Below are positions 7,927-55,789 of a stretch of 64,000 nucleotides of DNA, in pieces. The stretch covers positions 68,634,001-68,698,000 of the forward strand of contig CM060733.1 in the NCBI GenBank assembly GCA_030704615.1, read 5' to 3'. Below the pieces are notes generated by a model that did no database searches, had not been told where the DNA came from, and saw only the letters and a list, made by a program, of their open reading frames with translations. Numbering within the stretch: position 1 is the stretch's first letter; the number at the start of each line of letters is the position of its first letter. Position numbers and translations under genes: made by a program. The stretch comes from Takakia lepidozioides. Lineage: Eukaryota > Plantae > Bryophyta.

Positions 7927-8063
7927 TAGAATTTTAATGAACTCTCTGTACATTTAATTCTCTTCCAGAGTATATAAAGGAAATTCTCTCCCCGTCCTTC
8001 ATGTCCCCTCTCCCATGTGCTTCTCAACGACACAATCGTCCAAACCACGTCCCTCCCAAAATC

Positions 8064-29320: not shown

Positions 29321-32300
29321 AAACTTTGCTTTATTAAAGATGAGCAACAAAAGATGAGCAACAAGAAGAAAGATATTTTATATGAATCAGTTAATTGGTT
29401 AATGTATACAAAGTACATCAAGAGAATATCTATTATGCCCCTCTACGCGATCCCAGTCTCAAAACAACCTTACGTCTGTTATACACATCCCATTCATGTT
29501 GTATCCTGAGGTCCCAAGCATCCAGCAAGAACTTGTAGGATGCAAATAGCTCGGTGCTAATACTAGTCTTACTAGCACACACGGATACTACTACTCCAGA
29601 ATATCATCGGGAGGGTCATTCCTCATTGTCAAGCTCCAAATCTTCTCCAACGTACTCATGATCATCATCAACATTAATGTCCTCCCTATCTGAAGCCTCA
29701 TCACACGGCGAATCATCATCCGTATACCCATGATATGGCTCATGCACCGGCTGAACCATAGGATGAGGATCATGTTCTTCATGTTCTTCATTATCGTTCT
29801 CTTCCTCGTCTTCAGATGCCTCCTCGTCATCCTCCTCTCCAATGCCCACCTCAATGTTTACTTCACGATCTCCAACGTTAGTGTTGGAGGCCAGTTGTTC
29901 CTCAATTTCCTCCACCCAATGCATCATCATCTCCACCCTCATACGGTGTCCACCTTCCCACCGGAAGGCAGTAGCCCTATGGGGTCAAGTGACACCATAA
30001 GTTACGTTAAGCAGTAGCGTCCACCCTTCTCCACCCTCATCCTCGGCCTCCTCTTCCTCTTGCACGGCCTCTTCCCCCTCCTCTCCGTGATCCCGTGGGT
30101 CTTCATCTTCCATACCCCACTTAGAACCCTCGCCATGATAAATGCGCCTTCCTCTTGGCCGAGCATGCACAACCACCTTCCAATTGCCCGATCTAGTATT
30201 ATCCGTGAAAAAAAAGACTTGCTCCATATCGGAAGGCCATGCAAATGGCTCGTCAGTGATGCGACTACAGGGAAGGATCCTATCCGCATTGACTTGCATG
30301 AAGCCACATTCATCTTGTTGTAGTGTTGCATTTGCCCCTACAGTGTTGGATCGGAACCACCTCCCCTTGAAAATAATAGGTCGATACTCATCATACTGAA
30401 GTTGCAAAATGGCATCAATCTCCCCAATATATTCAAGCTTTCTTCTTTCGGGTCGAGTGTCCCTTGTGCTTGACACGGAATCTTGCCAATATGTTGCACA
30501 CAAACCAGAGTCAAAAGTGGTCTTCCGGCACATGTCAAGAGAGCGGATGCGGAAATGGCAACCACGAACCCACATTGAGGTGAACGAAAAGACATATTGG
30601 GATGGCCCCCTCGCTAGCTCGCGCACCAAGGCTGACACCACCTCACCGTTGTTCATTGCATGCTCAACTGCACTCCAAAGCCAATGACGGAAGGGTCTCA
30701 ATTGCTGCAAATCAGAAGGCAAAGCGGAAACCAGCCCTCGCCCGCGGCCTCGCCCTCGCGATGCACGCACCTGATCCTGTCCATGTGTGCGTCTCCAAGT
30801 GTGACTAGCCTCCAACCGCCGTGCATTCTCATTCGCATGTCTTGCCTCCCACTCCACTATACACGGGGTGTTCTTCAAAGGTATGACGCCTCCCGAAGGA
30901 AGCGTAACTTATGGTGTCACTTCACCACAAGGGCTACTGCCTTCCAGCTGAAAGGTGGACACCTTCATGACACACCAGACCATGGTTTGAACCCACGACC
31001 ACATCCAACGTGGTATGTGCCCATTACCACTGGGCTACATATTGGTTGTCGGAGTGTTCTTCAACACAAATTAGGCATGTGCTTGCTCTACCAATGTGGC
31101 GGAAAGCTTCACCCTCTTGGACTTTTTTGGCAAAACTTGCTCCTTGCTTATTACATCCCCCTCTTCCTTCCACATTCGGGGGTGTCTTTGTCCACCCTCT
31201 TCATGTACTCCGTACATAGAACCATAGCCTCCTGCAAGGTGTACCCCTCCGCCATACTACCCTCGAGATGCGCCCTTTTTTGCACATGTGCTTTCAGGTC
31301 CTTCATATAGCGCTCAAGAAAGTACATCCAACAAGCATGGACCGGACCGGCAATCTCGGCCTCCTCCACGTTCAAATGCACTACCGAGTGCACTTGGAGG
31401 TCAAAGAAATTAGGGGGAAAATGCATCTCCAACATACACAACACCGTGGCCGCCTCCACTTTCATTCGTTCAAAATCCTTCTCTTCCATCTCTTTTGTGC
31501 AAATCCAACGGAACAAGTCCCTCAGTCGATAGACGGCTTTCCGAATGCCCTCATGTAGTGTCCCTTGTATTGCAACGGGAAGGATGTCTTGCAAAATGTT
31601 GTGGTAGTCATGAGACTTCAAACCATGGATAGTGGCGGCATCCTCAAATTTGTTGCGTAGAGACAGAAGAAATATTAATACTATAGATAATATCAAATTA
31701 AGTTGTACCTAGATAGTCATGCATTGTCCATAGCAAAAGCCCTCGCAAGAGAAAAGAACATCGGCCAGTGAGTGCCGATGCATCATAGGCTGGAACTCCA
31801 TTCCATAAAAGCTTCAGTTCGTCAACCAATGGATGCATATACACATCCATGTCCTTCACTTGTTTTTTTCCTACTACACAAGTTATTTACAATACATATC
31901 AGATCGTTTCAAACACAAACAAAACAAATCATCTTAGTTACATATATATTCGACATTGTACTTCCACGTACATCGTAAAGCAACAAGAAAGAGTTGTGTT
32001 ATTCACCTGGCACAATGGCAGCCAATATAATATGGCCCTTCTTGATAGCAAGATAGGGAGGGATGTTGCAATTAACCAGTGTCAAAGGCCAAGTTGAATG
32101 GCTACTGGATTGGACTGAGAATGGATTGACACCATCCATAGACAAGCCGAGACGGACATGTCTAGGATCTTCTTTCAGAAAAGGCCATTTCTCCTCAGTG
32201 TGTTTCCATGCTTGAGAATCATGGGGGCCACACACCTTTCTCGGGGGGCTTCGATGTGTCGCATACCACTTCATGAGTTGTGCGAAGGATGGACTCCGAA

Positions 32301-32590: not shown

Positions 32591-33666
32591 ATGTACTTGT
32601 CGAGCGGCTTTTACTCACCCATCCCTTAGCTATCCGAGGTGGAAACTCCAAGATGAAGAGTTGGAATTCTCTAAGCACTCAGCCCGCTCAGAACAATCAG
32701 TCATGACCTACAACTAGTGTATCATGGGGGTGCTTCCTATTTGTATTCCTTCTCGCATTCACATTAGCAAGTTACCTTATTATCTATGATTAAGTATCAG
32801 ATTGCTTCTGCAATCTTCCATGTTCCATCTACCCAAGCATCCATTCCACAGCTTCACTCAGGTCTCTCTACACGGTGTGAGTATGAAATATGTATCAGAT
32901 TAATATCTATAAAGTATCAAGCCGAAGCCATGGTGTTTCTAATCTGCTCTACAGTGCATCTCTACAGCTTGCAGGAATCAAGCATCATCTTGTCGTATCT
33001 CCTCCTCTGTGTAATCTCCATTCCTGCGCTCCAAGATCGTGCTCTCCGCCTGATCTCCTCCAGTGATCTCCAAGAAGTGATCTCCAAGAAGTGACCCTCT
33101 CCATGTTGCTACTCTTCCTATTCTACCTGTAAGCTGTTCTAACCGCCTAACTAACTAACTAACTGTCATCCAAGACAGAATGCACGTTCCCCCTGCAGAT
33201 GTCGTTCCCACATAGTCGTTCCCTATCAATGATAATCGTTCCATGTGAACGCTGTAACGGGCTGTGCCAAGCTGTGTCGGGCTGTGACTGTGACTAGCTG
33301 TGTCGGACTATGTCGGGCTGTGATAGACTGTGATAGGATGTGTAAGGCTGTGTAAGGTTGTGTCAGGCTGTGTCAAACTGTGTAAGGCTGTGTCAGGCTG
33401 TGTAAGGCTGTGACAAGATGTGTAAGGTTGTGATTGACTGTGTTAGGCTATGTCAGGCTGTGACAGGCTGTGTCAAGCTGTGTCTAACTGTGTAAGGCTG
33501 TGACTGACTGTGTAAGCCTGTCTACCACCCCTAAGACCTGTGTCTGTCACCCCTAAGGCCTCTGTTGGTCTGAGTCTACCATCCGTAAGTCTGCGCAAAA
33601 TTAAGGGTACCCCACAAAACCCGTAAAATTGTCTAAGTCCCAGACAACCCTCTAACAATACTAACA
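32591..33666 (-). mobile_element. Probable solo-LTR-like insertion in a CACTA intron
   Basis: Minus strand begins TGTTAG (33666) and ends ..GTACA(T). TTTAT flanks both sides (32586-32590 and 33667-33671). No coding homology seen. Confidence 0.45.
33259..33520. repeat. 10-bp-period minisatellite (TGTCAGGCTG/TGTAAGGCTG)n
   Basis: About 25 degenerate units, directly visible. Confidence 0.9.
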
Positions 33667-35870: not shown

Positions 35871-36183
35871 TGTCAAGTTATTTTATCACTAGTGTGAAAC
35901 TAGCTAGGAAATAGTTAGTTTTGATATATTGACATTTGGGATTGATCCAAGTGTCAATCCAGGGGCCAATATGTGTTTGGGCACCTGGCGTGGTTATCTT
36001 CACGGCAGATCGCGGTGGGCTCATCTTTCTCAAGTTGAGCCTCGTCTAGCTATGGTGCTGTAGTGTGGATTCCCCATGGCGTGGGGTGCACTTGGCTCGA
36101 CTTAATATATGAGTGATGTTTTCATGTGCAAGTGTGTGAGCTTGGTAGAGAGCTTGTGTGCTTGTAATCCTTCTTGTTTATCA
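35871..36183 (+). mobile_element. Diverged LTR-like sequence (TGTCAAGTTA...TTATCA) related to the 354-bp LTRs, opposite orientation
   Basis: Same termini and internal motifs as the reverse complement of 48806-49160; followed by CTCGAGAAAGAT. Confidence 0.7.
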
Positions 36184-37172
36184 CTCGAGAAAGATCAGCT
36201 CGAATCTGTGAATGCCAGGTTCGAGTTAGTTGTAGCACTTGTGTTTTCAGATCGTGAGAAACGGTTCAGCCTAGAGTGTAGGGATCCGTGCATGAGCCTA
36301 TCCAAAGCGGATAGAGTGCAAAGGCGAACAGGTTGCAGGTTTGCAATGGGTAGATGAGGAGCAGCCGAATAGTGGAGCTGCGAGGGGATGCATCACAGCC
36401 TGTTGGGAGCTTCAGCTCCAAGCTCATTAAGAGGTATGAGTGAAGAGAGGGGGTTGGTCCCTGCTGTGTGCAAATCAGTGCACTTATGAAGCATGTGTTG
36501 AATTGAAGTTTCAATCTGAAACTCTAGCACTGTAAGGGCTCTTGAAGTGGCAAGAGTGGGGCTGGAAGGGCAGCAACGAGGCGCTCTAGAGCCAAGGGAT
36601 ATGCATGAGAAGTGCAGGTGCACCAAGTTTGTAAAGGTGTGTATTTTCAGATTCGTTTTTTGTGAGCTTCTTGAAGAAATGGAGCTTGTTGGGCACCATA
36701 TTGCTTGCTTGTTGAGTTTGGGGTGCCTCTGGAGGGCCGTGAGAACTCAAGAGAGCATGGCAGCAGATCTGGTGGCTTCGAAGAAGCCATAGCTCGTCAG
36801 CAGCAGGTGCAGGAGCAAACTCCAGCTCGGGGAGAGCTCGGGAACGCATGGGAATTCGTGGGGAGTTCCTGGGAATGCAGGGAACCGTGGCCGTGATGGG
36901 CAGTGGGGCCGGTATCACGAGATACCATGAGCCCAGCCATGGCTGTTGACCGAGGCCGTTGACCGTGACCGTGGGGAGTCGTGGCGCGGACACCACGGGA
37001 GGGCACGTTGACCGGCTCGTGGGAATGGCGGGCCGTGGTCGGAGGCCGTGCGGGGTCGTGATTGTGATACCACGGGGTATCACGGGGCAGTTTGTGGGCA
37101 GCGTATGCCTAGGGCGGGCCGTGAGAAGTCGTGGCGATGAGGGCCACGGAAGGGCTGCGAACAGGCAGAGCG

Positions 37173-37206
<34 letters not shown>

Positions 37207-37244
37207 AAAACAAAACAAAACAAAACTTTTTCACTCGTTTCGTG

Positions 37245-37745
37245 TGTCGTGCGCATACGTAACGCAACACAACTACATCGCTGTCCAAACCACACCACAC
37301 ATATATGCACAATAAAGATAAGAAAACTAGAAAACACACTGCTCACACCAGAAACAACATGAATCCATCGCTATCACTCTTTAAAACAGAAGTCGAGCCA
37401 GGGGCACCCCAAGCTATGGGGACTCCACCCCACAACAACCTACACTCCCATCATAAGCACACTCAAATCTAAACGCATGAAGGAGCTCGGTCGCGCAGGC
37501 TCAACTCGAGAAAGATGAGCTGCGCGACTGCCGCTCTCGTGAAGATAAGACGGGTCAGGTGTCAAACTAAACTTGACACCTGATTTAACACTTGACCTAA
37601 ATCCAAGTGTTAAATACAAATAACTAGCTTTATTCTAGCTAGTTTCACACTGTGCTTATTTAACTTGACAGCTGTCGTGCGCATACGTATCGCAACACAA
37701 CTACATCGCTGTCCAAACCACACCACACATATATGCACAATAAAG
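37245..37745. repeat. 73-bp direct repeat (37245-37317 and 37673-37745) bracketing the left LTR-like copy
   Basis: 72/73 identical by eye. Confidence 0.9.
37317..37670 (-). repeat. LTR-like repeat (3' copy)
   Basis: Identical to 48807-49160; starts TGTCAAG on the minus strand and lacks the terminal A of CA. Confidence 0.85.
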
Positions 37746-38016
37746 TAGTCTACCACAATCGCCCCCCTAGCTGGTGGATAGGTCCCTCTACCTCCATATA
37801 GCTACAAGACGTAATAGCCATAGCCGTACTAAGTCCTCTATCACTGTCCCTATCGTACTCAAACTCTATAGACCAAGAGGCCGGGTACAAGAGTAGCCCC
37901 ATCGTTAGTCGCCGTCTTGCAATCTGTGAACTTGAGCCAGGACTTCGTGTATTCAAGGTCTCCCGTAGCTGGGCCTTGCGTTTTTTGTTAGCCTTCCATG
38001 GTTGTATCCACTCCCA

Positions 38017-40227
38017 CTATCCAGTGCAATGTGGACATAACCAATCCCCATCCGGAACCATCTCAAGAGGTGGAGTCAAGCATCCCATATGCCAACCTCT
38101 AGAGCATCGATCACACACCAGCATGGTGGCTGCCCTTTTAGCAGACCCACACAACATGCACCTCAAACCTGCAGATACCACTGCCAGGTTTGGGTCAATC
38201 CTGCCATCGACATTCGGAAGGTGACATGGCGCACAATTACGCACATGGTCCTTCCAAGTTATGCCATCCCGACCCTCCAAGACCAAGACGCCTGAGGGCA
38301 AGACCTCTCGAACCCTCAAAATAACACGTCCTGCAGTCACATCCAGGGTCGTAGGAGCAGTCTGCTGCAGATAGACATAGTCGCCAGGGTTGAATCTCCG
38401 AACCCCAGGACGATAGCCCCCACCACGTATGGTAGCATACCTCAATGTATCACGGTGTTGTGCAATGGCAAGGTTCTCGAAAGCCATGGGCATGACTCTC
38501 TTGAACAACTCTGCACGCTGCTCACATGCACGTGCCCACACTTCCGGATCGTCAAGGTTAAGAACTGTAGCAGCTTCTCTGCGAATGGATGTAGGCAAAT
38601 CCGGCTCTCGGCCAAAGAGAAGAAAGTATGGTGAGAAGGAGGCGAGTGATGCTTGCTTGCTGAACCTGTAGCCCATGGCTAACCAGAATAACTGAAGGTC
38701 CCAATCTCCTAGGTGTCCCTTCTGCAAGCCATACTTGCGCAAACCCCTCTTTACTGTCTGAACAACTCTCTCTGCCAAGCCATCGGCCTCAGGATGATCC
38801 CGAGAAGTGGTGCGGTGGTCTATCAAGGCCTTGTCACACAACGCCTGAAACTCCCCCAAGAACTCTCTCCCTTGGTCCGTGAGTACCTCAGCTGGAGCAC
38901 CGAATCGGCTAAGCACACAATCCAAGAATGCATACGCAGCTCCCTCACTAGCCTTATCAGGCAATGGAACCAATTCAATCCACTTGGAGAAGTGCTCCAC
39001 CATCACCAACACGTACTTGTTGTGGCGCATGGTCAGTGGCAATGGCCCTGCGAAGTCAAGACTCCACCTGTAGCCCAATCCCATGATCGGAAGAGGGTGC
39101 AATTGTGGAGTAGGGGCGTTGAATGAAGCACGCACCCTGTCACACACCATGCACCTAGCCACAAATTGTTGCACCTCTGTGTGCATACCACGCCACCAGT
39201 ACTGCCCCTGCAGTAGACTATGAGTGCGTCGCACCCCAAAATGCCCCAACTCCTCATGGGCATGGCGCACTAACCGTGCCCGCTGTGTTGGGTGAGGCAC
39301 AATCCTCACTCGACCATCCTCCCACACTCGGAGCAGGTGTGTCCCCTCCCACTTGAACCTCTTGGCTCGTTGTAGGATCCGATCCCTCTCCTTGGTAGTC
39401 ACAGTGGCTGCCGTGTCTCTAGTGCGGAGGTAGTCCAACACAACTGAATCCTCATGTATATCTTTGGCGCCACCTTGCTCATTGCTGGCCTCAGGGTCCT
39501 CAGACACTTGATCTACAGTCATCCCTGTTGCCGGTCCAACCTGGCCTTCCGCTGCCAAGATACACAGAAATGCAGATGCATGCCATCCGGGCACCATCTC
39601 CTCGTCCGTCTCACCATGCCACCGAACTCCAGTGTCATCCTGTTGGCTCATGCATGGATTGCGACTCAACCCATCTGCATTGCGATTGACCAAACCCGGT
39701 CGATGCACCACCTGAAAGTCATACTCTTGAAGGATGAGTGCCCACCGTGCAAGCTTCCCCGTAAGCTTGTCTGACTCCATCAACCACTTGAGTGGTTGGT
39801 GATCCGTGACAAGGGTGAAGAGATTGCCGTATAGATAGCACCTGAAGTGTGCCACGGCCCACACTGCAGCTAAGCATTCTCCCTCATATGAGCTATACTT
39901 AGACTCTGCAGCATTGTTCGAGCGGCTAGCATAAGCCACTACGAACTCTCTTCCCTCATCATCCACCTGTGTGAGCACCGCTCCAAGCCCCAGCATGCTC
40001 CAATCTATATGCAGCTGAAAAGGACGCCCCCTGATAGGTCGTCTCAAGATGGGCGCCGAGGTCAACCTCGCCTTGAGCTCTTGAAAAGCTTGTTCTTGCT
40101 CATCTTCCCACTGCCACTCCTGGTCCACCTTGGTCAGCTTGGTTAGAGCCTTTGCAATGGCACTAAATCCCTTAACAAACCGTCTGTAATAGTTTGCTAA
40201 CCCCATGAAAGCTCGAACTCGGCTCAC
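38017..40227 (-). pseudogene. pol C-terminal part: RT linker, RNase H, integrase, PHD finger
   Basis: LHIDWS..GLGAVL..YASR (RH). HEELGH..CMVC (HHCC). WSLDF, LTDQGREF and GLAER (DDE). CMLC...CDRC..WHMGC...WLCPHC (C4HC3 PHD). Confidence 0.95.
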
Positions 40228-40269
40228 ATCCGTGGGGCGTGGAACCTGTGCAATGGACTCTACCTTAGT

Positions 40270-41036
40270 CTACTGTACCCCCAATCCTCCAGGATATATC
40301 ATGTGACCCAGATACTCAATCTGGTTGTGGAAAAACTTGCACTTTCCCGGATGTAACTTCAATCCGTGCGCCCTCAAGCGCTCAAATACCCCCTGAAGGT
40401 GTCTCTCATGCTCCTCCACCGTAGCACTAAAGATGATGATGTCATCTATGTAGCACCGAGCAACCTCCACCCCTGCTAGAATCCTGTCCATGACTCTTTG
40501 AAACTCAGCGGGAGCATTTTTAAGCCCAAATGGTAAGAACCGCCACTGGTATAGGCAATCCTTCCCGTGCTCATTGATCCCCAGAATGCCGTCTTTTGCT
40601 TATCCGCCTCCTTGATCGGCAACTGGTGATATCCGGATCGTAAATCCAACGTGCTAAAGACCTTGGAATGCCCAATGGCATCAAAGATCTCCTCTGGTGT
40701 CGGCATGGCATACCTATCGGACTTGGTCTGACGATTTACAGGCCGGTAATCACCGCACATACGTCTCTCCGTCCAATTGCCATAGACATCCTTCTTGGCT
40801 GGCATCACTGTGGCTGAAGCATACTCTCCACCAGAGAGCTCCACCAAACCTGCCTCCCAAAGATCCTGAGTTCTCATCTGAATCAAGGACCTCTCCATGT
40901 CACTGTATCTATAGGGTCTCCGAAAGATTGGCGTGTCAGTAGCCAATTCAATGCAAATCTCTTGACCCTTCAGTGCTCCCAAGTCCTTCAAACTGAAGGC
41001 AAAACAATTCCTGTAAGCCCTCAGGAACCGCCGCAT
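40270..41036 (-). pseudogene. Reverse transcriptase, frameshifted near 40575
   Basis: RMCGDYRPVN, FSTLDLRSGYHQ, LPFGLKNAP, CYIDDII, KCKF. Confidence 0.95.
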
Positions 41037-41150
41037 ATGTCGTCTCTCTCCTCCGGTGACAATGGGTCCAATGTCAGGCTCCCAATTGTCCTCCGTAACT
41101 GCAACCTTAAGTCCAGTGGGCTTAGAGGTAGAGGACGCGTCCCGTGGTTG

Positions 41151-42413
41151 CTATGCTGCAACCTTTTGAGCAGTACTCTCTTCCTGCTCAGTCATTGACA
41201 AGGCCTCATCCTGCCCCATCATCTCATCATTGAGAACCTCCTCATCCCGAGAAGAATCCCCAACCTCATCCATCACAGCTGCCTTGGCTGCCAACTCCCT
41301 CTGAACCTCGAGCACCTCCCACGTGTGCCATGGATGTCTACACCCCGTGGTCCTCACCGGCTCGCCCCCACTCGCTGCCTGTACCGTCCCGGTAGGCAGA
41401 GAGACCATGAAGGGGAGTGCACTCCGCACTCTACGTTGCTCAGCCATAGCCAAGCTAATAATCCAGGTCAAGCAATTGAGATCCATTGCTTGCCCCAACA
41501 CCTGACGTCGTGATGCCTCAGAAAGAGAAGGCACCGCCGTGGTCCTAGTGGAAAACCCCATAGCCCGCTCTCGCTCGTCGGCATTAGGCTCCACTAACTG
41601 CTGCAACTGAGCATCCCACAGGAGGCCAGGTCCACCATCCCGAAAAGCATGGGATCCTGGGAAGCTGAGCAGTGTAGGTAATGCTACTCGTGGTTGACCC
41701 ACCCTGTTGACCACTGCCAAAGGCGAACGGTCATCGTGTCTCACACGTTGAGACTGCCTCCCTGTGTCCAAAATGCCATCCACGGTGAGGTGTGCTGGCC
41801 GCTGCACCCCATCAAATGCACGCTTGAGTAGTGCAGGTGGCATCAAGTTAGTCCACCAAAGCCGTGGACGATGAGCCCGTGACCCCACTGCGGCTGCATC
41901 CAGCAACACTGCTGATCCAAGCCACGACCGGACTTGATGCACACTGGCCATCACCCTGGCCCGAGAATCGCCCATCAGTGGCACATTCTCCAAGATGTAT
42001 GCTGGCGATACAGCTTGATGAAGCTGCAAGTGGCGCAAAATCCGCACCATCTCCCAAAACAGACCCGTCCTCGAGTCTCGCAATCCATTGCCATGCCCGG
42101 CTGATGAATGCCCTTGGCAGGGCCAACCTGCCACTACCAGATCAATGGAGCCAACCTGCTCCAAATCCGGCGCCCCCAACAACGAAATGTCTGCTGGCAA
42201 GGCTTGTTGGTATCCACGAACTGCAGACACTGGTAACAAAGCAGGGTACTGTTGTACCAACTGAGCAACATGGCGCAGTGAGACGCGTCGTGCAGTCTCA
42301 TCCCTCTCCACATACAGGTAACACCTTACCCGCACACCTGCCTGTAGCACAGCAGCCAATCCAGTGCTGATCCCGCCAAACAAGTCCAAAAGGCAAATGC
42401 CTTCATCCGGATA
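41151..42413 (-). pseudogene. C5 cytosine DNA methyltransferase domain within the gypsy polyprotein
   Basis: Motif I DLFGGISTG; II YVERD; III ADI; IV AGWPCQGHS; VI ILENV; VIII AHRPRLWW; IX ERERAMGF; X LGQAM. Confidence 0.92.
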
Positions 42414-43517
42414 CTACCACACAATAGGTGTGGTATCCAATGGTGACAACTGAGGTGGTCCTGGTGCAATACCCGCACTCTCCTCCTCTTCTGACGGTAC
42501 AAAAGCCTCTACCCAGGCTTGTTGCACCCGTCGATCAGCAACCTGCTGCAAATCCTTGCTCGTACCCCACAATGGAGTGTGAGCAACCATGGCAGACAAC
42601 TCCGCCATACCATGCATGTCATCCTGCTCTGCTGGAGGTGGCACATCCTCTGCATGGGCATTGCCTTCTAGCAACTCTCCAGGCCAACTAACTGCAGCTG
42701 TAAAGGCGGCTAGTGTTGGCATCTTGCCCCGCTGGGCAGCCGCTATACCCCCAATGAATGTCACAGGGAGCTATGCACGGCGACCATCGCCTGACTGCCA
42801 TCCAGGCCTGTAGGATGCTGACTCCTCCCAAAAGTCCAGGGTGAAGCCCATGGGGTATAACCCTGCCCCACCAATGAGGACATCGTAAGAGACCGCGTCT
42901 GTCACAATGGCCTTGGCTCGCATCACTGAGCCATCTCTAGGATGATCCGGCTGCAGTCTAATGGCCAACTGATGTCGTGTCATGCCCCGAGCCTGCTCTG
43001 ATCCTCCCAGAGATGTCTGTATCTGGAAAGGACAAGGCTCCATATCCGCCTCCATGAGGCCCAAACCTGCAATAGCAGCTCTGCCCAACATCAGTGGCTG
43101 AGCTCCCGAGTCCAACAAGACCCGAAGTGGCCGGTACTTCTTGCTTGCCGGTCCACTCAAAGTGAAAATGCCTCCCTGGTTGTCTAACAAGACAACTCCA
43201 GGTGTCACCGTGGCGCGCTCAAAGGCTGGCCTAGCTGGCAGCTTTGTCAACCTGGCAGCTGCAGCTTGCCATGGCGCAGCCGTGGCAGTCTTGACCCTCA
43301 AATCCGAGGATCCCTCTGCCACTACACCTTCCACTAACTCCGCAGAAGATGAAGTGACCTCCCCACTCTCACAGAGTGTTGCTGCTAGTCTGAACACTGC
43401 AGCTGGTCTCACCCCCGGCGTCGCAATCATTGTTGCCGAGAACAGTGGGGCCTGACACACAGAGGTGGCTGCCCCCAATAACACACCGGCCGCACTAGCC
43501 TTGGCAGCAGGAGTCAA
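42414..43517 (-). pseudogene. Aspartic protease region of the polyprotein
   Basis: VLLDSGA ... YDVLIG; same frame as the DNMT, separated by TAG stops. Confidence 0.85.
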
Positions 43518-45351
43518 TGCTGCACGTGTAGCTCTCCCAATGGCATAGTAACCTCCGCCTCGGTAACAGTCGGGCGAGAACTAGGTGCCATGGATGGCGT
43601 CGACACAGTCTCCGCCAATGTGAATGACTGAGGAAGCCTCGCCTGACGGCTTGCCTCCCCACGCTGTGGATCCAATTCCACCTCTGCACCTCGTGGCTCA
43701 GGAACTCGTGCTGCTCCTCGAGTCACGGCTGCAGCAGACTCCACCTGCTCTAGTGGTAGTGTCGCTCCGCACATAAATCCCATGCCTCCCATATCTCCTC
43801 CCTCAGGAGCAGGAGGTGGACCATCCCGCCTGGGAGCCGGTACCGCCTGAGCTATAGCCATGGCAGCGAGCCTCTGCTCTAGCTGCTGAAGCCGGTTGGC
43901 CATGCCTTGATCAACACCCTAACCTCCGCGTCCTTGGCCATGTTGAGCTTGCCCTTGGCCTGCACCTCGTGCCCGACCACCTTGTCCTCTCTGGGCTGGT
44001 CCACCTTGCCCCCGGCCACCATTGTTCCCTTGGAATGGCCTGGGCGCAACTCAGGATGCAAGTCATAACACTGGGCATCTCCATGCCCATACTTGCCACA
44101 ATGCCCACACTGCAACTGTGCAGGCTGTGCTTGTGCCGGCCTTCTGCCACCCTCTGGGCAATCTCTCTTGACATGGGGTCCTCCACATGTCCAACATATC
44201 ACCCCTGGTTGCTGTTGGCCTGCAAAAGACGCCACGGGCCTCTGCACCTGAGGTCCCCTGTAAGCTCCATGGAACTTGGGTTGGGCAGCCTTGCCCCCCT
44301 GACCACGCTGTTGGGCAGTCCCTTGTGCCTGTGGGCTGACAGCTGTGCCCCGTGCAGGCATGTCCTTGCCAAATCCAATTGTAACAACTCACTCCTCCAC
44401 CATGTTGAGCTCAATCCGCTCAGCCAGCAGAAACACATCTGCTAATGTGGGTTGGGCTGCTTGTAACAGGGTTGCATCTCGCACCCTTCTCTTGAGCTCC
44501 TTGTCCAGAATTCCATACCAAAACTGGATTGCCTGAGCTTCAGTAACCCCTTGGGTCACACTTATCAAGCGCCTCATACGAGTGTACGCCTCTCGCAGGC
44601 TCTCACTGGGTTTGCGCTGGAAGTCTTGCAAACTTCGCAGCTTCTCTGTCCGTACGCCTTGGTAGTTCCTCCGCAACTCCTGGAAGAACTCCACCACCGG
44701 GTTGAATCTAGGCACATGTGTTGTAGTCGTGGCAGGAGGAGTAGTAGCACCTTTTGAACTGGTACCACCTGCAGAAGCACCAGCACTACTTGCTCCACTA
44801 CTAGTGCTGGTAGTGGGAGCTACTGGTACTGATGCAGCTACTGGTCGCGTCGTGCCTCGAGTAATGGAGACGTAGTCAGGTGACCAATACATCCTCCACT
44901 CCTCAATCTCTGCTTCATGTCCTCGCCTGAACTCGTGGTAATCGTCCATCGGCGGGCCTTCCAAATGCTGGAACAGTCCCTTCCACGCCATGAATGGGGT
45001 GAATAGCTGTGGATTGCGCATCTGCTGCAAATCACACCAGCTGTCGAACTCCTGGATAAAGTCATCCAACTCGATTGTGCCCACAGCTCCAGAGTACCTA
45101 CGAGGCCCCTTGGTAGCTCCATACATCTCCTCCATGTCGTCCCACAACAATGGCGAATGAAAGTGCACACCAGTTGATGAAGCCTCCGAGTCTGTGTCTA
45201 ACTCTACAGTAATTGAGGGTGGCGGTGAAGGTGGTCTGAACCGAATACCTCGTCTTGTGAACCCACTCTCACTGTTACTGCCTGTAGCCGTACTCCCCTC
45301 AAAACCCTTGGGTAACTCCATAATGACACTCACAATGTGCACCTCCTCCAC
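43514..45351 (-). pseudogene. gag with two CCHC zinc knuckles, frameshifted
   Basis: Q..ESLREAY.RM motif; CWTCGGPHVKRDC; CGHCGKYGHGDAQC. Confidence 0.85.
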
Positions 45352-45870
45352 GTGACACTATAAGGCTCTAGTACTAATCTAATAGTGACACGGGTGGGCA
45401 CCTGTTGCAGTTTAAGGGTCATATCCCAATGGCTCAGGGCACCTGCACCTGCATCCACCGCAAGAACTCCTATGGTTGGCTGGTTATCAACCCAGCCTCA
45501 CCATAGAAGAAACACTGGTGGTCTTGCTGGTCATCACTCCAGCCTCACCACCGACAGCATACTCTAGGATTGACCGGTGATCAAATCCGGCCTAATCCCT
45601 ATGAAAGCAAGCGCCCACACAAAACCAACATGGCGCACAGTCAAGCATGCAGGTGTTGGGGGGGATCCAAACACAAGAAATCAAAACATCAACACCCCCA
45701 CACCAAAATCCAGCTGCAATGCTGATCCTGCAGAATAGCCCAGCCCAAAACCCCGGACTGACTGACCTCCACCAAGAGAGGCTTTGGCAACTACAAGTAC
45801 AAGGTAATAAAAATAGTACAGAGATGGAGGGGAAGAATAGAAGCCCGACCAAGCAAGATCTAATCCTGAT

Positions 45871-46620
45871 CTATGCTATCAACTGCCAGACTTCTCTCAA
45901 AGTGCCTCGCTCTGCATGATGGTAAGGTGTAGGAGGTATATCTATGTCCAGAAACTTGCCACTAACCTTGTCCCAAGCTACAGTAGCTCGCTCTAACCAA
46001 CCCTCCTCCTCTTTCTTCCAGGTAGAGACAAAGCAATACTCCCCTATCTCCCGCTCACTGAATACTAAAGAAAACAAAGGTAGGGTCTGATAGTCTCTCA
46101 ACTCGAAAGCTTTGAGATGGTTGCGGGTGTCCTCATTGCGAATGACTGCATCTCCTTCACGCACAACAAACATGTCATTGCTGATGAACCCCCGCTCGTG
46201 GTTGCCCTGTGCAGAGCGTATCCGGCTGCAACCATGTCTGATTGCACAAACTTGTGTAGCTCCTGCTCCTCTGCTCCAGTACACCACGGCCTTGTGGCTG
46301 AACACCTTGGTCCCCGGGGCTGTCTTTGGCTGTGTTCCAAGCCTAGCTTTCACCCACTTTGGTATTTCACCTACAGCTGCAGAACTGCTGGCTCCAACAG
46401 AGTTCTGACTGTCCAAGGCGATATTGAGGCCCTCAATGCCAACTACAGCAGTCTGTTGTCTACTGCTAATGCCTGACTCCGAGTATGCAATCAACTCGTC
46501 CAACTGTTCTCCACTCAAATCAGTCTGAGTTCCTTGGGAAACATAAATCCTGTCCCCTTGTGTGCACAGGCTAAGAGAAGAGACCTGCCCTTCAATTACG
46601 TCCTCATTTCCCCCAGCCAT
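45871..46620 (-). CDS. 249-aa ORF of unknown function upstream of gag (extra ORF)
   Basis: Uninterrupted ATG-to-stop ORF, co-oriented with gag-pol; no motif recognised. Confidence 0.45.
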   Translation of the reverse strand: MAGGNEDVIEGQVSSLSLCTQGDRIYVSQGTQTDLSGEQLDELIAYSESGISSRQQTAVVGIEGLNIALDSQNSVGASSSAAVGEIPKWVKARLGTQPKTAPGTKVFSHKAVVYWSRGAGATQVCAIRHGCSRIRSAQGNHERGFISNDMFVVREGDAVIRNEDTRNHLKAFELRDYQTLPLFSLVFSEREIGEYCFVSTWKKEEEGWLERATVAWDKVSGKFLDIDIPPTPYHHAERGTLREVWQLIA

Positions 46621-47870
46621 GCAAGGAGTACATCCACATATTTGTCTCTCATATAGACCAGCACAGGTTCTAGAGACAGGATTGTGGATCTTTTATGGCA
46701 CACTCACACTCTAAAAATTCCATAGATTTTTAGCATAGTCCCAAAAACAGAAACCAGGTCTAGGTAGGTAGATTTCCCCTTTCTGCAGCTATCCTCCCAA
46801 AAACTGAGTCAAACGGAGTCCATCTGACAAAGTTATGACCAGTTAGGCTCTAAATCATTTAAATTAGATCAAAAGGTTTTTTTTTTTTTTTTTAACACCA
46901 AAACGTTCTCGCCATTACAACCTGTTCCCAGGTTATCTATGGGTTCCTGAGGCCGTTCCCCTCCAGGCTTCTCCAGGCACCAAGAACTCTCCAACTCCAA
47001 GACTCGACCTCAGTTATGGATGGGGTATCACACCCTGGAGCAGCAGGCGTGCGATAACGGATTGCCCTGCATCACCGAATTGGGGACATCGGCAGAGCTC
47101 GAGCGCCTGGGCTTAAGCGCATCCGAGATTGATGATCTCCGACACTGTCTCAAGGCATTTCCACATGCCTTTCAGCTCTACATCAGCGGCAGATTTTGAG
47201 AAGTCATGCAGACAAACTGCTACAGCCTAATACTTTACAGCAAATTGAAATTCCTTGTGTCTGGGCATCAACACCGAAAACCTATGTAGGTACGCATGCA
47301 AAAATTGTTGCTGATGGCTGATATATGTGCCTATTCAAGAGGCCCGTTGCAGGTTAAAGGATGATTGGCAGGGAAATAGGCAAGAGTACTTTCCACTGAG
47401 CTGACCTTACGATCCCCAGAACTACTTGGAAACGGTAGCAACGAGAGCAGAGGTTGGACCTCATCAGTGGGAGGGCACCCAGATGAGATCATTCTGAGTT
47501 GACCAATGGCATGCTTCGGCTCCCTGAATAATGTTGAGAGCCGTGAAGGCAGGATGCTCTGATGCCCAGAGACTGGTATCCAAATGACATATGGCGACTG
47601 CGTGAATGATTGATCCATCTACAGCTGCCAACGAAGCCTGCACCACCTTGGTTCCTGTGACATGATGGCAGTAGTAGAGAGCCGAAGGAAACATAACGTT
47701 GTGGCAAATGACAACATTCTCGCCCTCTACCACACTTTGCTTGGTAAAGTCAACAACCTTCACTGGTGCCTTGGTAATGCCTACACGTCCCACTGATTTT
47801 GGTGAACAAGACTGACAAGGCCAACAGTTTTTTTTTTTTTTTTTTTTTTCAAGAAAGCTGATGGGTGCTT

Positions 47871-48570
47871 TCAGCAGGCAAGTGAGAGTGGATCGCTCAG
47901 GTGCGTGGCCCAGTTGTCCAAGGGACCCTTGCCTATAGCAGCAGCTTGCACAGCAAAACCCAAAGCAGCAACCATGGCCAGCCTTGCATGCTTAATTTCG
48001 GCGAGTTTTAGAACCTCTTTCTTCTCGGGGTCAGCTGCCAGTCCGAGGGGATCGAAGTACTTGCCACCAGGATACAGACGCCTCTCTGGGTCTAACTCGG
48101 CATTCCTTTGGAACTCAATGTATCCTACCACAAGAGTCTCAATCCAGACAAGAGCAGAGATGCTGAACGGCAACGAGAGACCGAAGTAAGAGGGACCATC
48201 AGCAAGTTCCACCTTTACAGCATCTTGCCATGTCACGCCAGTGAACGTCTCGACAGACAATGCTCAACAATGGCAAGCATTGCCCATTTACCGTGGATCA
48301 GTTCGCATTCCCTGAACCTTTGGAGGCCGAACACCTCACTGTACGGTGGGAAGGGAGTGGGGTTGATATCCTTCTTCTTATCAAGACGGGTTCCGATCAC
48401 GACTCCAGCAGGGTTCTTAGCCAAGTTCTGGTTCAGTGAATCCAGCTCGAACTGCAGATACTCTAGAGATTTTCCCAGGGACAGTGGATCGAAACCGTAG
48501 TCGGGGCCTTTGCACCTGGGAACCACAGAGGCCTATCCGCCGACCCAGTCTTCTTAGACCCAAACAGCAG
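47871..48570 (-). pseudogene. LHCB4: Intronless, frameshifted copy of light-harvesting protein CP29
   Basis: DRPLWFPGA; YGFDPL.LGK..EYLQF..DSL.QNLAKN; [20 protein letters not shown]; [17 protein letters not shown]; [10 protein letters not shown]. Internal deletion, truncated C-terminus, 22-nt poly(A) at 47828-47849. Confidence 0.92.
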
Positions 48571-48805
48571 GTCCAGCCCACCTGCTTGTTGTAAAAAGCT
48601 TGGACCCGCTACATTCCCAGGAGGTTAGAACTGTTGCAACGACGCTTTGAGTGGTTCCTGCCTTCCTGTTATGCTCCACTAGGCACACATAGCCAGTCTA
48701 ACTACCGGCTCTCGTGACCAAGCTATATTATAATAGTGCTTAAAAACAAAAACGTCACATCTAGCTTAGCACTAGAAAACTAGATACGGCGTCATCTTTC
48801 TCGAG

Positions 48806-49160
48806 TGATAAGAAAACTAGAAAACACACTGCTCACACCAGAAACAACATGAATCCATCGCTATCACTCTTTAAAACAGAAGTCGAGCCAGGGGCACCCC
48901 AAGCTATGGGGACTCCACCCCACAACAACCTACACTCCCATCATAAGCACACTCAAATCTAAACGCATGAAGGAGCTCGGTCGCGCAGGCTCAACTCGAG
49001 AAAGATGAGCTGCGCGACTGCCGCTCTCGTGAAGATAAGACGGGTCAGGTGTCAAACTAAACTTGACACCTGATTTAACACTTGACCTAAATCCAAGTGT
49101 TAAATACAAATAACTAGCTTTATTCTAGCTAGTTTCACACTGTGCTTATTTAACTTGACA
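48806..49160 (-). repeat. LTR-like repeat (5' copy), TG...CA
   Basis: TGTCAAG...TTATCA on the minus strand; followed by 14 nt complementary to an internal LTR site. Confidence 0.88.
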
Positions 49161-50797
49161 CGTAGGACCTTGATGGGGAGGCTGGGCTATAAAGAACAAC
49201 GGTTTTGAGCTAGCTGATCCGGCAGAAAAGTTGGAATTGCCTCCCTGTTGCATTTTTACAAAGGGAGACCAGCCTGCAGGTAATTCCTTTGGACAGAATG
49301 TTGTTGGGGCCTATATGTACCCTATTTGCTCCATTTTTTAACCTTCAGTGGATGGCGTGGTTTCCTGAGGTAGTTCCATTCTGAGGAATGGCTGGTAGAT
49401 GTAAGGAGGCACTGGCGGACCCTGTGGAGGCTTGCATGGGGCCTTGGAGGCCAAGTTTCATGAGCTCGTGGAGGGCGGTTTGAGGAGTGTCTACATGATG
49501 CTCTCATGGTCATGCAAGTGTGAGAAGAGAGGAAAAAGAGAGTGTTGGGATGAGGGCATGCTGGGGTTAGGCATTGCTTTAGCTTCTCTTCCTCATAGCT
49601 TTTCACCTTCTTTGTAGGCCGAGGCAAGAGTCAGTCCGGGTTTGGGCTGGGGTGTTCTTGTAGGAGCGACACTGTGGAGTTGTTTTTGGTGTGGGGGAGT
49701 TGTTGTTTTCATTCTTGTGTTTGGATCCCCTCCACACCTGCATGCTTGATTGTGCGCCATGTTAGCTTTATGTGGGCGCTTGATTTTATAGGTGGTTGAC
49801 TCGGGCTTGATCGCCGATCCAACCCTAGAGCATGTTGTCGATGGTGAGGCTGGGTTGATGACCAGTCAGACCATCTTTGTTTATCCTATGGTGAGGTTGG
49901 AGGTGATGACCAGCCAACCATGGGAGTGCCTGTGGTGGATGCAGGTGCAGGTGCAGGCTATGTTAGGAACCTAGTATTCCAAACCATAAGCCGCAATAGG
50001 TTCTCTACCCGGTTACATTGTGGAGAGGGGGTTAGAGACATGTTCATGACCGGTTGAGTGTCAGTTTGTCAATACAGAGGTACCACTAGTTGCAAGGGAA
50101 AGTGCCGGTACGAGCACTAGCGGTACTAGCGGGTACACGAGACGAGGTGTGAGGTTTAGGCCACCTTCACCTCCCGTGTCTTCTACGGAAGGTTCTGATT
50201 CAGATTGAGAATCAGGATGACTCACACCGACGGTGCAAGTTGTTTCCTTGCCATTGTTGTGGGACACAATGGAGGAGATGTACGGAGCTACCAAGGGGCC
50301 ACGAAGATACTCTGGGGCGGTGGGCACCATCGAGTTGGATGATTTCATTCAAGAGTTTGATAGTTGGTGTGACTTGCAGCAAATGCGCAATCCATAACTG
50401 TTTACGCCTTTCATGGCATGGAAGGGGCTGTTTCAGCACCTTAAGGGGCCACCCATGGATGATTACCATGAGTTTAGGCGGGGGCATGATGTTGAGATCG
50501 AGGAGTGGAGGATGTATTGGTTACCCGACTATGTCTCTGTCACTAGAGGCACAAGGGCAGCAACTGCACTAACAGCTGCATCGGCAGCTTCCACAAGCAG
50601 CAGCGGGACTAGTGGTACAGAGGCTACGACGTCCACCCAAGCTACTGCTGCACCAGCACCAGTGGCCGTGCCTGCCTTCAACCCTGTTGTGGAGTTCTTC
50701 GAAGAGTTGAGAAGGAACTACCAAGGGGTGAGGATAAAGAAGTTGAGGAGCTTGCAAGAGTTCCAGAGGAAGCCTACTGAGAGCTTGAGGGAGGCTT
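49161..50797 (+). mobile_element. Fragment of a related gypsy element: leader and gag N-half
   Basis: Homologous to 44590-45800 in the opposite orientation (MAWKGLFQHL.GPPMDDYHEFRRGH..ESLREA). Confidence 0.85.
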
Positions 50798-51337
50798 GAG
50801 GGAGGTCCACTCCCTGCTCCTGAGTATTTCCGTCCGGGCTCTTCCTTTCAAATAGAGTGGACTGAAATGCGGCATAGCCGGGTCCGTCCACTGTGACACT
50901 CCTCATTCTGGACCTATTTTTTCACGACTCCGTCGTTTGTATTGTCGATATCAACACAGCAGGATAGGCAAATGAATGGGGCATTCTATAGGAGGAACAT
51001 TTTTACGGGTGTTTCATGGGTACAGGCCGTGGTGGTCCTGTACTCTTATGTCCTCCATTTGGGAAGAATCGTGTTTTAAAGAGGAGAGATACTCCGACTT
51101 GTTCACATCCAGAATAAATAAAAGATTTTTGTGAAGTATGAATTCCTCCTGTGAATGGTCATGTCTTGAGTTTTTTTTAGGAGTCCATGTGGAAGTCATG
51201 TGTTTCTGAATGAGGTCTACAAGTTCTTCCGTCTTCTGTAATCAGACTTCTTACTGATTTCCATGTGATTTTATTTATTTATTTTATTTTTATTGTTTCA
51301 CCATGTATTTCACCATTTCGAAAGGAACATCCCGGAC

Positions 51338-51520
51338 GGAAATGCGGTACCGCATTTCCGTTCTACCATGTCTTCGGTGTCTCAGTGGACGGAAATGCGG
51401 TGCTGCATTTCCGTCGGCTTTCTTCCAAAGGAAGATCCCGGACGGAAATGTGGTACCGCATTCCCGTTCCACCATGTCTTAGGTGTCACAGTGGACGGAA
51501 ATGGGGTGCCGCATTTCCGT
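51338..51520. repeat. Four GGAAATGCGGnnCCGCATTTCC palindromes with exact 53-bp period
   Basis: Starts at 51338, 51391, 51444 and 51497. Confidence 0.9.
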
Positions 51521-51536
51521 TCCACCATGTCTTGGA

Positions 51537-53560: not shown

Positions 53561-54219
53561 GCCCACAAGGTTAAAGATCATCCCAAACATCATTGGACTA
53601 CGCTCAAATTCAAAAGCACCTCACAGATCTATTGACTTTCAAGACCCGGAGGCCAGTATTGGAATAGCACTGAATCTAATCATTGCAAGTATCTGCCTTC
53701 GACTGCGATCCTTCCCGTCTCTAATGCTCCGTGGTTGCACCCAGCTAACATCTTCAAGAGCGCCCCAGGCCACATGTGTTACCCCGCTCATATTCTGCAA
53801 TGGAGACGAGCCCCGCATTCTTATAACTTCCCTAGTCAGGGAGGGGATGGAATCCCTGTGGATTACAACTACGGACATCAGGAAATTTGTGATAAAGGAG
53901 CCAATTGATGATAGCCCTATCCCAACGCTAAGAAGAAAGATCGAGGACTACTTCCAAGTGGGGGGATGCCTCCGCGTGAGCCTGGCCGCGTGAGCGCGGC
54001 CAAGCTCACGCCACGTCACCGGTTCTCACCACATTGGCTCAAGGGTCCGACGCCACGTCAGCAGTCTTCGCCAACGTGGTTGACGCCACGTCACGCCTCG
54101 CCATGTCATTTCCATGGGCGTACCTACGACCACGGACAGAACAGGGAGAAAGAGACAGGGAGAAAGAGGCCTATAGCCGCGGAATTGGTAGCCGTAGACT
54201 GTTATTTTTTTTATTTTTT

Positions 54220-55480
54220 TTGCATTTGACATTCGGCATTTGGGTGGATGTGATAATTGGTGCCGATCATTACTTCTAGGTTTTTTTTTATTTTTTATTT
54301 TTTATTTTTTACTTTTGATATTTGGCATTTGGGTGGATGTGATGATCAGTGCCGGCCATCACTTCTGTCGGTGCCGCCGATCTTTTTTTTTAAATTTAAT
54401 TTTTTATTTAAAAATACTTTTCTTTCATTCAGCATTTGGGTGTCGACCATCACATCTGTCGGTGCCGCCGATCATCACTCTCCGTTTTTTATTTTTTTGG
54501 ACATTCGGCATTTGGGTGGATGTGATGGTCAGCACCGACCATCACTTCTGTCGGTGCCGCTGATCATCACTTTCTGTTATATATAAATATAAATACAATA
54601 AATTTAAATATAAATATAAATTGGCTTTTTGACATTCGGCATTTGGGCGGATGCGATGGTCGGTGCCGACCATCACTCGCCAGTGCCGTCGATCATATGG
54701 GCATTCGACATTTGGGTGGATGCGATGGTCGGTGCCGACAATCACTTCTGTCGATGCCGCCGATCATCACTTTTTCTTTTTTTTCTTTTTTTTCTTTTTT
54801 TGACATTCGGCATTTGGGTGGATGTGATGATCGGTGCCGACCATCACTTCAGTTACCGATCACCACTCTCCGTGTTTTTTTTTTTTTTTTTTTTTTTGGC
54901 TTTTGTCATTCGGCATTTGGGTGGATGTGATGGTCGGTGTCGACCATCACTTCTGTCAGTGCCGCCGATCTTTTTTTTTGGCTTTTGACATTCGGCATTA
55001 GGGCGGATGCGGTGGTCGGTGCCGACCATCACTTCTGTCAATATCGCCGATCATCACTTTTTTACTTTTTTTTTTTGTTTTTTTGGCTTTTGACATTCGG
55101 CATTTGGGTGGATGTGATGGTCGGTGCCGACCATCACTTTTGTCAGTGCCGTCGATCTTTTTTTTTTTGGCTTTTGACATTCGGCATTAGGACGGATGCG
55201 ATGGTCGGTGCCGACCATCACTTCTGTCAATCTCGCCGATCATCACTTTCTGTTATTTTTTATTTTATTTTTATTTTTTGGCTTTTGACATTTGGCATTT
55301 GGGTAGATGTGATGGTCGGTGCCGTCAATCACTTCTGTCGGTGCCACCGATCATCACTTTCCGATCTATTTATTTATTTTTAAATAAATTTAAGGTGGCT
55401 TTTGATATTTTGGCATTGGGGTGGATGCGATGGTCAGTGCCGACCATTACTTCTGTCGGTGCCGCCGATCATCACTTCTG
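54220..55480. repeat. Tandem array (~13 units, mostly ~85-130 bp) containing palindrome GTGATGGTCGGTGCCGACCATCAC and poly-T spacers
   Basis: TTGACATTCGGCATTTGGGTGGATG recurs throughout. Confidence 0.9.
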
Positions 55481-55789
55481 TTTTTTTTTTTTTTTTTTTT
55501 GTTTTTGTTGTATGCCCAGGGAACGCCACTTGTTTCTAGAATTCCACATCTTGAAGGGGATGAGAGATTCGGCTCCTGTAAGAGGAAATTGAACACCCCA
55601 CCTGGCTCGGATTCTGATTCGCACAGGGCAGACCGTGATAACTTCTCGAAGCCTCATGTTCCCCTCCATAACAAATCGATGTCCGGAACCTCCGACACGA
55701 CGGCAGACTCCAACATCAAACAGTGCCACTGAAATGATGCAGGAGAGAAACTACCCCCTTGATGTGCTGGAGTCCACATGCCCCGACCA

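Follow-up and report, generated by a model that had tools for sequence, protein, structure and literature searches.

Structure and state of the element

The window analyzed here is a 64,000-nucleotide stretch of the bryophyte Takakia lepidozioides (assembly GCA_030704615.1, contig CM060733.1, positions 68,634,001 to 68,698,000; coordinates below are those of the window). On its minus strand, at 49160–37245 as mapped from repeat ends within the window, lies what is almost certainly a decayed copy of an abundant bryophyte family of Gypsy retrotransposons carrying a DNMT3-like DNA methyltransferase (DNMT). An earlier reading of these letters alone (the sequence-only reading) had recognized a Gypsy polyprotein with a methyltransferase between protease and reverse transcriptase (RT) and a PHD finger after the integrase; its extent of 43517–38017 proves too small. 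In their 5′ to 3′ order, the features of the element are as follows:

48806–49160, minus: repeat A1, 5′ end of the element; starts TGTCA, ends CA; 354 of 354 bases the same as in A2
48994–49008, minus: 15-nt stretch within A1, likely the transcript 5′ end and self-primer; inverted repeat, 100% complementary to the primer-binding position
48792–48806, minus: primer-binding position directly after A1, pairing with the A1 stretch
45770–48790, minus: enlarged 5′ internal region with sense host gene pieces, chlorophyll a/b-binding (PF00504, E 1e-20) and BURP (PF03181, E 2e-27)
43517–45357, minus: Gag with zinc-knuckle-like region (Pfam), broken; premature stops at 44391 and 43921, frame changes near 44035 and 43535
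42774–43580, minus: aspartic protease region (LLDSGA); weak Pfam match (E 0.024–0.035), conserved in relatives
41400–42413, minus: DNMT3-like C5 methyltransferase domain, no internal stop (Pfam, alignment, fold model)
41145–41153, minus: TAG CAA CCA, separating the DNMT linker from RT; conserved stop in a context typical of readthrough (comparison of loci)
39721–41150, minus: RT and RNase H (Pfam); frame change near 40578, premature stop at 40272
38200–39291, minus: integrase with H2C2 zinc domain and rve core (Pfam); nearest solved structures are Ty3 Gag-Pol and foamy virus integrase
38017–38160, minus: PHD finger (Pfam), then the stop of the second open reading frame (ORF)
37760–37775, minus: polypurine tract immediately preceding B1, a placement shared by 10 of 10 B-A-B ends
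37673–37759, minus: repeat B1, ending CACGACA (repeat comparison)
37667–37676, no strand: palindromic B/A junction GACA-GC-TGTC, candidate internal attachment site (junction comparison)
37317–37670, minus: repeat A2, same as A1
37245–37316, minus: repeat B2, 3′ end of the element, lacking the first ~14 bases of B1; 72 of 73 bases the same as in B1

Gag, protease, RT, RNase H, and integrase stand in canonical Ty3/Gypsy order, and TG..CA ends, a target duplication, and a polypurine tract are likewise present; two matching long terminal repeats (LTRs) at both ends are not, the 5′ end consisting of A only and the 3′ end of B-A-B or B. Profile searches of the ORFs, a check proposed with the sequence-only reading, recovered PF00145 in 42413–41154 (E 2e-13) and, after the integrase as that reading had placed it, PF00628 at the end of the 40269–38020 frame (E 1.2e-10), together with RVT_1, RNase H, rve, and H2C2; matches to protease (E 0.024) and Gag (E 5e-4) were weak.

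A single minus-strand frame holds the protease, linker, DNMT, and start of RT, divided by TAG codons at 42773, 42416, and 41153. All three had been taken for point mutations, an account rejected here: the stop at 41153 is retained in relatives and is of a recoding type, whereas the other two look like decay. The codon at 42773 is mostly sense in relatives (a stop in 9 of 44 rows); that at 42416 is sense in 79 of 79 relative rows, and its stop is nearly private, a different letter making up 627,824 of 632,944 summed depth in one public sequencing run. The Gag and RT regions bear the further premature stops and frame changes listed above. Since A1 matches A2 at all 354 bases and B1 departs from B2 at just 1 of 73, the insertion is young even though its coding region is dead.

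Many diverged copies of the family exist. The same public run yielded 79,890 contig records on the 7.7-kb coding region at 90–100% identity, a figure that gives no copy number and comes from a run that may be the window's own source. The three frame changes are common to part of the aligned records, which hints at mobilization of defective copies in trans. The distance from A to gag is 3449 in the window, compared with 983–1181 in seven relatives; this region (45770–48790) contains a chlorophyll a/b-binding protein piece, which we take to be Lhcb4-like and apparently without introns, and a BURP C-terminus, both on the sense strand, as well as a 273-codon frame (46692–45874) with no Pfam match. 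The host gene pieces likely reflect RNA capture during reverse transcription.

The methyltransferase domain and its relatives

The PCQ, ENV, and RxR motifs reported by the sequence-only reading are present, and the catalytic Cys (C99), the Glu of ENV (E142), and both Arg of RxR (R182, R184) are invariant in 32 of 32 aligned domains that share 34–69% identity. By sequence, the best solved relatives are DNMT3A, 3B, and 3C, ahead of DRM2 and bacterial enzymes, with DNMT2 far lower. A fold model built from the 32-row alignment (predicted local distance difference test, pLDDT, 93.8) has DNMT3A as its top match (Foldseek E 5.8e-20); comparison with DNMT3A/B gave Z 29.2 (root-mean-square deviation 2.5 over 273 residues), whereas the top-scoring bacterial enzyme reached Z 25.9 and DNMT1 23.1. 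By alignment and model, the enzyme is DNMT3-like and unrearranged, with catalytic residues kept.

Relatives were drawn from a metagenome scan that confirmed 359, of which 80 were kept as L-numbered loci; domain order is retained across these 80 as far as each extends. The ratio of nonsynonymous to synonymous substitution (dN/dS) for the DNMT is 0.13 between two unbroken copies (L044/L045), 0.087 for L049/L055, and 0.15–0.17 between subfamilies (L004 versus four L005-type loci). Comparisons with the window itself have saturated synonymous sites (proportion of differences pS 0.74–0.81, pN 0.18–0.44), and, as a point on the other side, pairs of decayed copies give 0.24–0.53. The DNMT is under purifying selection; neutral evolution, which the sequence-only reading had named as a possible refutation, is not borne out among the less decayed pairs.

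Querying protein collections with the DNMT returned 62 longer proteins, including many from Marchantia polymorpha (named hypothetical) as well as Calypogeia fissa, two Sphagnum species, and Klebsormidium nitens. The RNase H-integrase-PHD region returned 719 proteins; the 120 matches listed include Riccia, Calypogeia, Closterium, Klebsormidium, Tetraselmis, and Tetrabaena. The K. nitens protein (P0055) has the order DNMT-RT-RNase H-integrase; its DNMT is 45% identical to that of the window, and the two fall in one RNase H-integrase clade (27 rows, quick tree; Shimodaira–Hasegawa-like approximate likelihood ratio test, SH-aLRT, 100). Trees of DNMT and RT-RNase H for 22 rows, a comparison that had been suggested earlier, give the same main groups, with poorly supported deep DNMT nodes; the Klebsormidium row, removed from these by a coverage filter, is included in the 27-row tree and in a tree of 35 DNMTs. 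In the latter, all 35 element enzymes stand apart from three viral ones, a weak test given a purely viral outgroup on long branches; within that same tree L011 groups with a Sphagnum protein. Viral contigs held only four distant methyltransferases (24–29% identity), and the ESM Atlas gave generic C5-methyltransferase clusters, one of them streptophyte.

The conserved position of the domain in relatives, its low dN/dS, and the match between DNMT and RT trees bear out the view that it is integral rather than a neighbouring insertion. It is true that this copy holds captured host gene pieces in its 5′ region; still, a passenger gene, of host or microbial origin, that landed in this copy and decays along with it would hardly occupy the same position in liverwort, moss, and charophyte relatives, and we reject that explanation as having practically no chance of being correct.

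An exhaustive search produced 261 clusters at E < 1e-30. Among the best 150, 27 have the order RT-RNase H-DNMT-integrase-PHD, with further fragments fitting that order; about 17 are compatible with a DNMT ahead of RT or behind protease, and in 55 the DNMT is the sole domain seen. The RNase H-DNMT-integrase order forms a second architecture (P0038, P0042, P0376, P0382, and others), common among the top clusters, which places the same DNMT lineage between RNase H and integrase, and two of its proteins (P0473 and P0507) also bear a G-patch domain. The presence of one DNMT lineage at two positions suggests that the domain was captured once, long ago, and that domains were shuffled later, as against a capture confined to Klebsormidium. 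The comparison with Klebsormidium yields a shared DNMT lineage and does not support a separate capture; the window element extends a published kind. A Coleochaete scutata transcript (P0065) is 71% identical to the window, closer than the second bryophyte subfamily (~55%), which may reflect old parallel lineages, horizontal transfer, or contamination. One family member (P0231; cluster of P0067; L044) is annotated as coming from an uncultured cyanobacterium and is probably plant DNA binned into a metagenome genome.

A conserved stop between DNMT and RT

Among 33 close loci (DNMT identity at least 45%, window included), 29 have TAG or TAA followed by CAR-YY no more than 25 codons from the RT match: TAG CAA CCC in 18, TAA CAA CCC in 7, and TAG CAA CCA and TAG CAG TTA in 2 each. 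The exceptions are L016 (TAG TAG CCA), L029, L033, and L034; L078, binned with the distant group through a frameshifted DNMT, also has the signal. The background frequency of the context is 147 of 17452 TAG/TAA codons (0.8%). In L044, ORFs of 1369 and 1047 codons lie in frame with a single TAG CAG TTA between them, and many database proteins stop 77–165 residues past the last DNMT motif. CAR YYA after UAG is the consensus for readthrough of the tobacco mosaic virus (TMV) type, with about 10% efficiency described for TMV (PMC2754532).

Several observations weigh against programmed readthrough. Only four lineages, separated by saturated synonymous sites, are independent carriers, many rows being of one subfamily or the same insertion in two assemblies; most close loci have CAA CCC, one base off the consensus; and in the subfamily at ~40% identity the conserved stop occurs in 0 of 21 loci (L078 having been moved to the close group). 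Members of that subfamily have an open frame from DNMT into RT, as does the Klebsormidium protein, so readthrough is not essential to the lineage. It could also be that the stop merely ends the first ORF, with RT-integrase translated from a shorter or spliced RNA, or after reinitiation, as a Met two codons past the stop in the L005-type subfamily would allow. In the window and L004, though, no Met precedes the conserved start of RT homology; the ORFs also remain in frame with each other, and CAR-YY persists where the adjacent protein sequence has diverged, all of which make this explanation improbable. On the strength of its conservation, programmed readthrough of the stop before RT is highly probable. 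A conserved stop in such a context would place protease and DNMT at the level of Gag, and we infer that in the window's subfamily the DNMT is made on the abundant Gag side.

Split repeats and a probable integration route

The window element has the layout A-coding-B-A-B. Junction evidence comes from the window and the metagenome loci: four of the latter show the full layout (L036, L050, L055, L057), five further elements have a B-A-B 3′ end (L017, the second element of L024, L043, L070, L078), and five have B alone (L015, the first element of L024, L029, L049, L059). Among ends that follow a polypurine tract or close an element, B-A-B thus accounts for 10 of 15 and B alone for 5; ends of L033/L034 and L060 are deleted or cut off. 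A repeats were found 5′ of coding regions, and none of these upstream copies was preceded by B. Because B directly follows the polypurine tract and A directly precedes the primer site, B+A corresponds to the LTR of ordinary reverse transcription.

At the B/A junction, 8 of 10 ends have ACA-NN-TGTCA and the other 2 have ACA-NN-TATCA; NN is GC, AC, AT, or GT, and the pattern recurs in three subfamilies whose A and B repeats give no cross matches. Elements start at the junction TG and end at the junction CA, with the NN bases missing at both ends. In seven elements with both ends, the 4-bp flanks are exact in three, agree at 3 of 4 bases in three, and do not match in one; the NCGN target preference described for Phygy elements of REXdb (PMC6317226) was seen at 0 of 7 target sites.

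Taken together, the ends are best read as products of an end-joined intermediate, whether a circle or an RT jump, cut at an internal palindrome, and we consider this probable from the junction sequences. Against it stand the lack of a directly observed circle (an RT jump would give the same junction), the absence of the predicted alternative product A-B-A-coding-B among the ends examined, and a mismatch in the window's own target duplication despite near-identical repeats. The B-only forms could derive from 1-LTR circles, double cutting, or B-B recombination.

As to how the ends are joined, the A/B junction might arise without a ligated circle if RT switched template a third time, jumping from the right DNA end onto the left, with integrase then trimming at the internal palindromes. 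Several junctions do share one base between the end of A and the start of B, and one shared base is enough for RT to clamp; the B-only ends (5 of 15) also fit linear DNA cut at both internal sites. The window's A/B junction instead lacks ~14 bases of the start of B, and loss of bases is usual for end-joining. Moreover, retroviral integrases are reported to cut palindromic circle junctions in HIV-1 and foamy virus (PMC4372172; PMC1905944, PMC1180852), followed in HIV-1 by integration of the cut 2-LTR circles (PMC4372172). A template jump accordingly appears unlikely.

Probable self-priming

The stretch of 15 bases that follows A1 is perfectly complementary to A positions 153–167, a match reached in 0 of 1000 shuffles. 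Three differing primer-site sequences each pair with their own A over 15–17 nt (exact in 4 of 6 elements; 0 of 1000 shuffles), those of L036 and L050/L055 differing from the window's and pairing at a like place in A. L057, with no exact match (14 of 16), and L033, with just 10 nt, count against the pattern. Its conservation and covariation make priming from the element's own transcript, rather than a tRNA, very likely. Such priming would follow the Tf1/Sushi-type mechanism.

The PHD finger

A PHD finger follows the integrase in both land-plant subfamilies, in the Klebsormidium and Coleochaete proteins, and in the second architecture. The nearest solved PHD fingers are those of CHD4, PHF12, KDM5B, ATXR5, PHF21A, and KDM5A, which we take to bind unmethylated H3K4; by homology, the domain may target the element to chromatin. 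Assignment to the chromoviruses (Tcn1, Chlamyvir, and others) was rejected, since the integrase is followed by PHD and then a stop, with no chromodomain. The sequence-only reading had named PHD-bearing non-chromovirus Gypsy elements from non-seed plants as established; this could not be confirmed, the term PHD occurring 0 times in the main text of PMC6317226.

A model for replication and insertion

These observations are compatible with a model that we moderately favour as a whole, in which the window holds a recent, decayed insertion of an element whose DNMT is made with Gag-protease, whose RT part is made by readthrough, and which integrates from end-joined DNA. Transcription would start ~150 bases into A1, and the 5′ end of the RNA would fold onto the site after A1 and prime without a tRNA. 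Roughly one in ten ribosomes would pass the UAG, leaving particles much richer in DNMT than in RT. Given where the primer site and polypurine tract lie, standard LTR replication should yield linear [B-A]-coding-[B-A] DNA, both ends of which could be joined as in a 2-LTR circle to form the A/B junction. Integrase would then cut both strands of the upstream CA-NN-TG palindrome after CA, and the permuted A-coding-B-A-B form would be inserted with a 4-bp target duplication. Either before insertion or as it happens, the packaged DNMT may methylate the newly made DNA, probably at CG, while the PHD finger may steer integrase to nucleosomes with unmethylated H3K4.

The enzyme may instead be kept for another role: it could bind nucleic acid inside the particle, act as an RNA methyltransferase, or methylate host chromatin or sibling copies so as to limit damage. 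RNA methylation and host benefit are raised by de Mendoza et al. (2018) themselves, and the Klebsormidium domain gave no methylation when placed in yeast, a result that they call inconclusive (PMC5890265) and that also tells against self-methylation in the model above. An enzyme at Gag level exceeds the need of one cDNA (complementary DNA), and CpG depletion in the element (0.51) is not clearly greater than in its flanks (0.55–0.65), nor does CpG/CHG depletion separate the two. The invariant catalytic residues in 32 of 32 domains and the fold of a DNA-acting DNMT3, with DNMT2 far lower by sequence, argue for DNA as the substrate, and a different role seems rather unlikely.

A broader proposal is tentative, and we regard it as less probable than the model itself: that this is a green-lineage-wide Gypsy clade, abundant in bryophytes, which normally integrates via a palindrome-cut, end-joined circle, and whose active Gag-level DNMT3 methylates that circle so that copies arrive pre-methylated, a mobile methyltransferase adding to early land-plant methylomes. 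LTR circles are usually treated as dead ends; if the proposal is true, a DDE-integrase retroelement inserted as a permuted 2-LTR circle would be a natural case of circles as precursors. With this family, a DNMT3-like writer and a PHD reader travel on one mobile element in land plants, among them the model liverwort Marchantia, where many copies are annotated as hypothetical proteins. The idea of self-methylated cDNA put forward in 2018 thereby becomes testable in a transformable plant, and counts of host DNMT genes are affected too.

Other features of the window

The focal element appears to have inserted, in opposite orientation, into an older relative 72–82% identical to it (35871–37244 and 49161–50797, plus strand; 53560–51537, minus strand). 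This relative has its own A-like repeat and self-priming match (36019–36035/36183–36199), and its later part is inverted, with a 51-bp inverted overlap (50747–50797/53560–53510). Tandem or clustered repeats of an 82–118 bp unit with T-rich spacers occupy 54194–55509; a ~53/106 bp unit (GGAAATGCGG..CCGCATTTCC, itself palindromic) occurs at 1671–2341, 8047–8847, and 51317–51533, and a 10-bp array at 33258–33547. Direct repeats of 92–96% identity at 18746–19950/23496–24687 and 20476–20775/22145–22444, ~4.7 kb and 1.7 kb apart, are perhaps the ends of another element. A DUF4216 piece, presumably from a CACTA-type transposase region, lies at 29988–30908 (minus strand). At 58401–59870 (plus strand) is a conserved MATH-domain host gene, nearest to that of Physcomitrium patens (93%) and then those of Marchantia and Calypogeia (90%), which points to a bryophyte host, probably a moss.

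Comparison with known elements

Searches of the open literature, which did not extend to subscription journals, Repbase Reports, theses, and bioRxiv supplements, gave no description of this family in land plants, or of its readthrough or repeat mechanism. The sequence-only reading likewise knew of no characterised land-plant case; the kind of element is already known as KnitGypsy-Dnmt3 of Klebsormidium nitens (PMC5890265). Passages of that study describe DIRS-like split repeats and Ka/Ks < 0.2 for KnitGypsy-Dnmt3, present its capture as an acquisition of the K. nitens lineage, and propose cDNA methylation; for the related case SymbioDIRS-Dnmt3, they report methylation of CG in yeast. The main text has no match for "PHD" or "Marchantia", and the passages give no readthrough, priming, or split-repeat mechanism, while Figure 4c may show a PHD finger.

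DIRS/Ngaro-type elements and SymbioDIRS-Dnmt3 share the A-coding-B-A-B layout, and SymbioDIRS-Dnmt3 likewise has a DNMT3 in its polyprotein. DIRS/Ngaro elements, however, use a tyrosine recombinase, whereas the window element combines a DDE integrase with TG..CA ends and 4-bp target duplications; an identity as a DIRS element was rejected on the presence of the rve integrase and target duplications, with no recombinase match in the ORFs scanned. In 2-LTR circles of HIV-1 and foamy virus, cutting of a palindromic junction of the CA-NN-TG type yields integrable DNA, as proposed here; there it is a reserve route, and the cut at the circle junction restores normal LTRs, whereas the window element would be cut within the LTR, and by its normal route. 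TMV-type readthrough has the same 3′ hexamer; in the element, the UAG comes after protease and DNMT, not after Gag alone. Tf1/Sushi elements and Tcn1, for which the self-priming pattern has been predicted (PMC6317226), share a primer site complementary to their own repeat; the window element differs in having split repeats, a DNMT, and a PHD finger instead of a chromodomain. A PHD-bearing Gypsy element is also described in Chlamydomonas: Gypsy-7a_cRei has a PHD finger in its polyprotein and biased insertion but no DNMT among its listed domains (PMC9940879).

KnitGypsy-Dnmt3 remains the closest known system. Both are Gypsy elements with an unrearranged DNMT3-like domain under purifying selection, DIRS-like split repeats, RT-RNase H-integrase order, and membership of a shared clade; the element described here differs in its land-plant host and many copies. 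In KnitGypsy-Dnmt3, DNMT and RT lie in one uninterrupted Pol ORF, as in the ~40% subfamily, whereas the window subfamily has the conserved in-frame stop and is a related variant of KnitGypsy-Dnmt3, not a member. The element is thus a land-plant relative of KnitGypsy-Dnmt3, with split repeats and probable self-priming and readthrough that go beyond the sequence-only reading.

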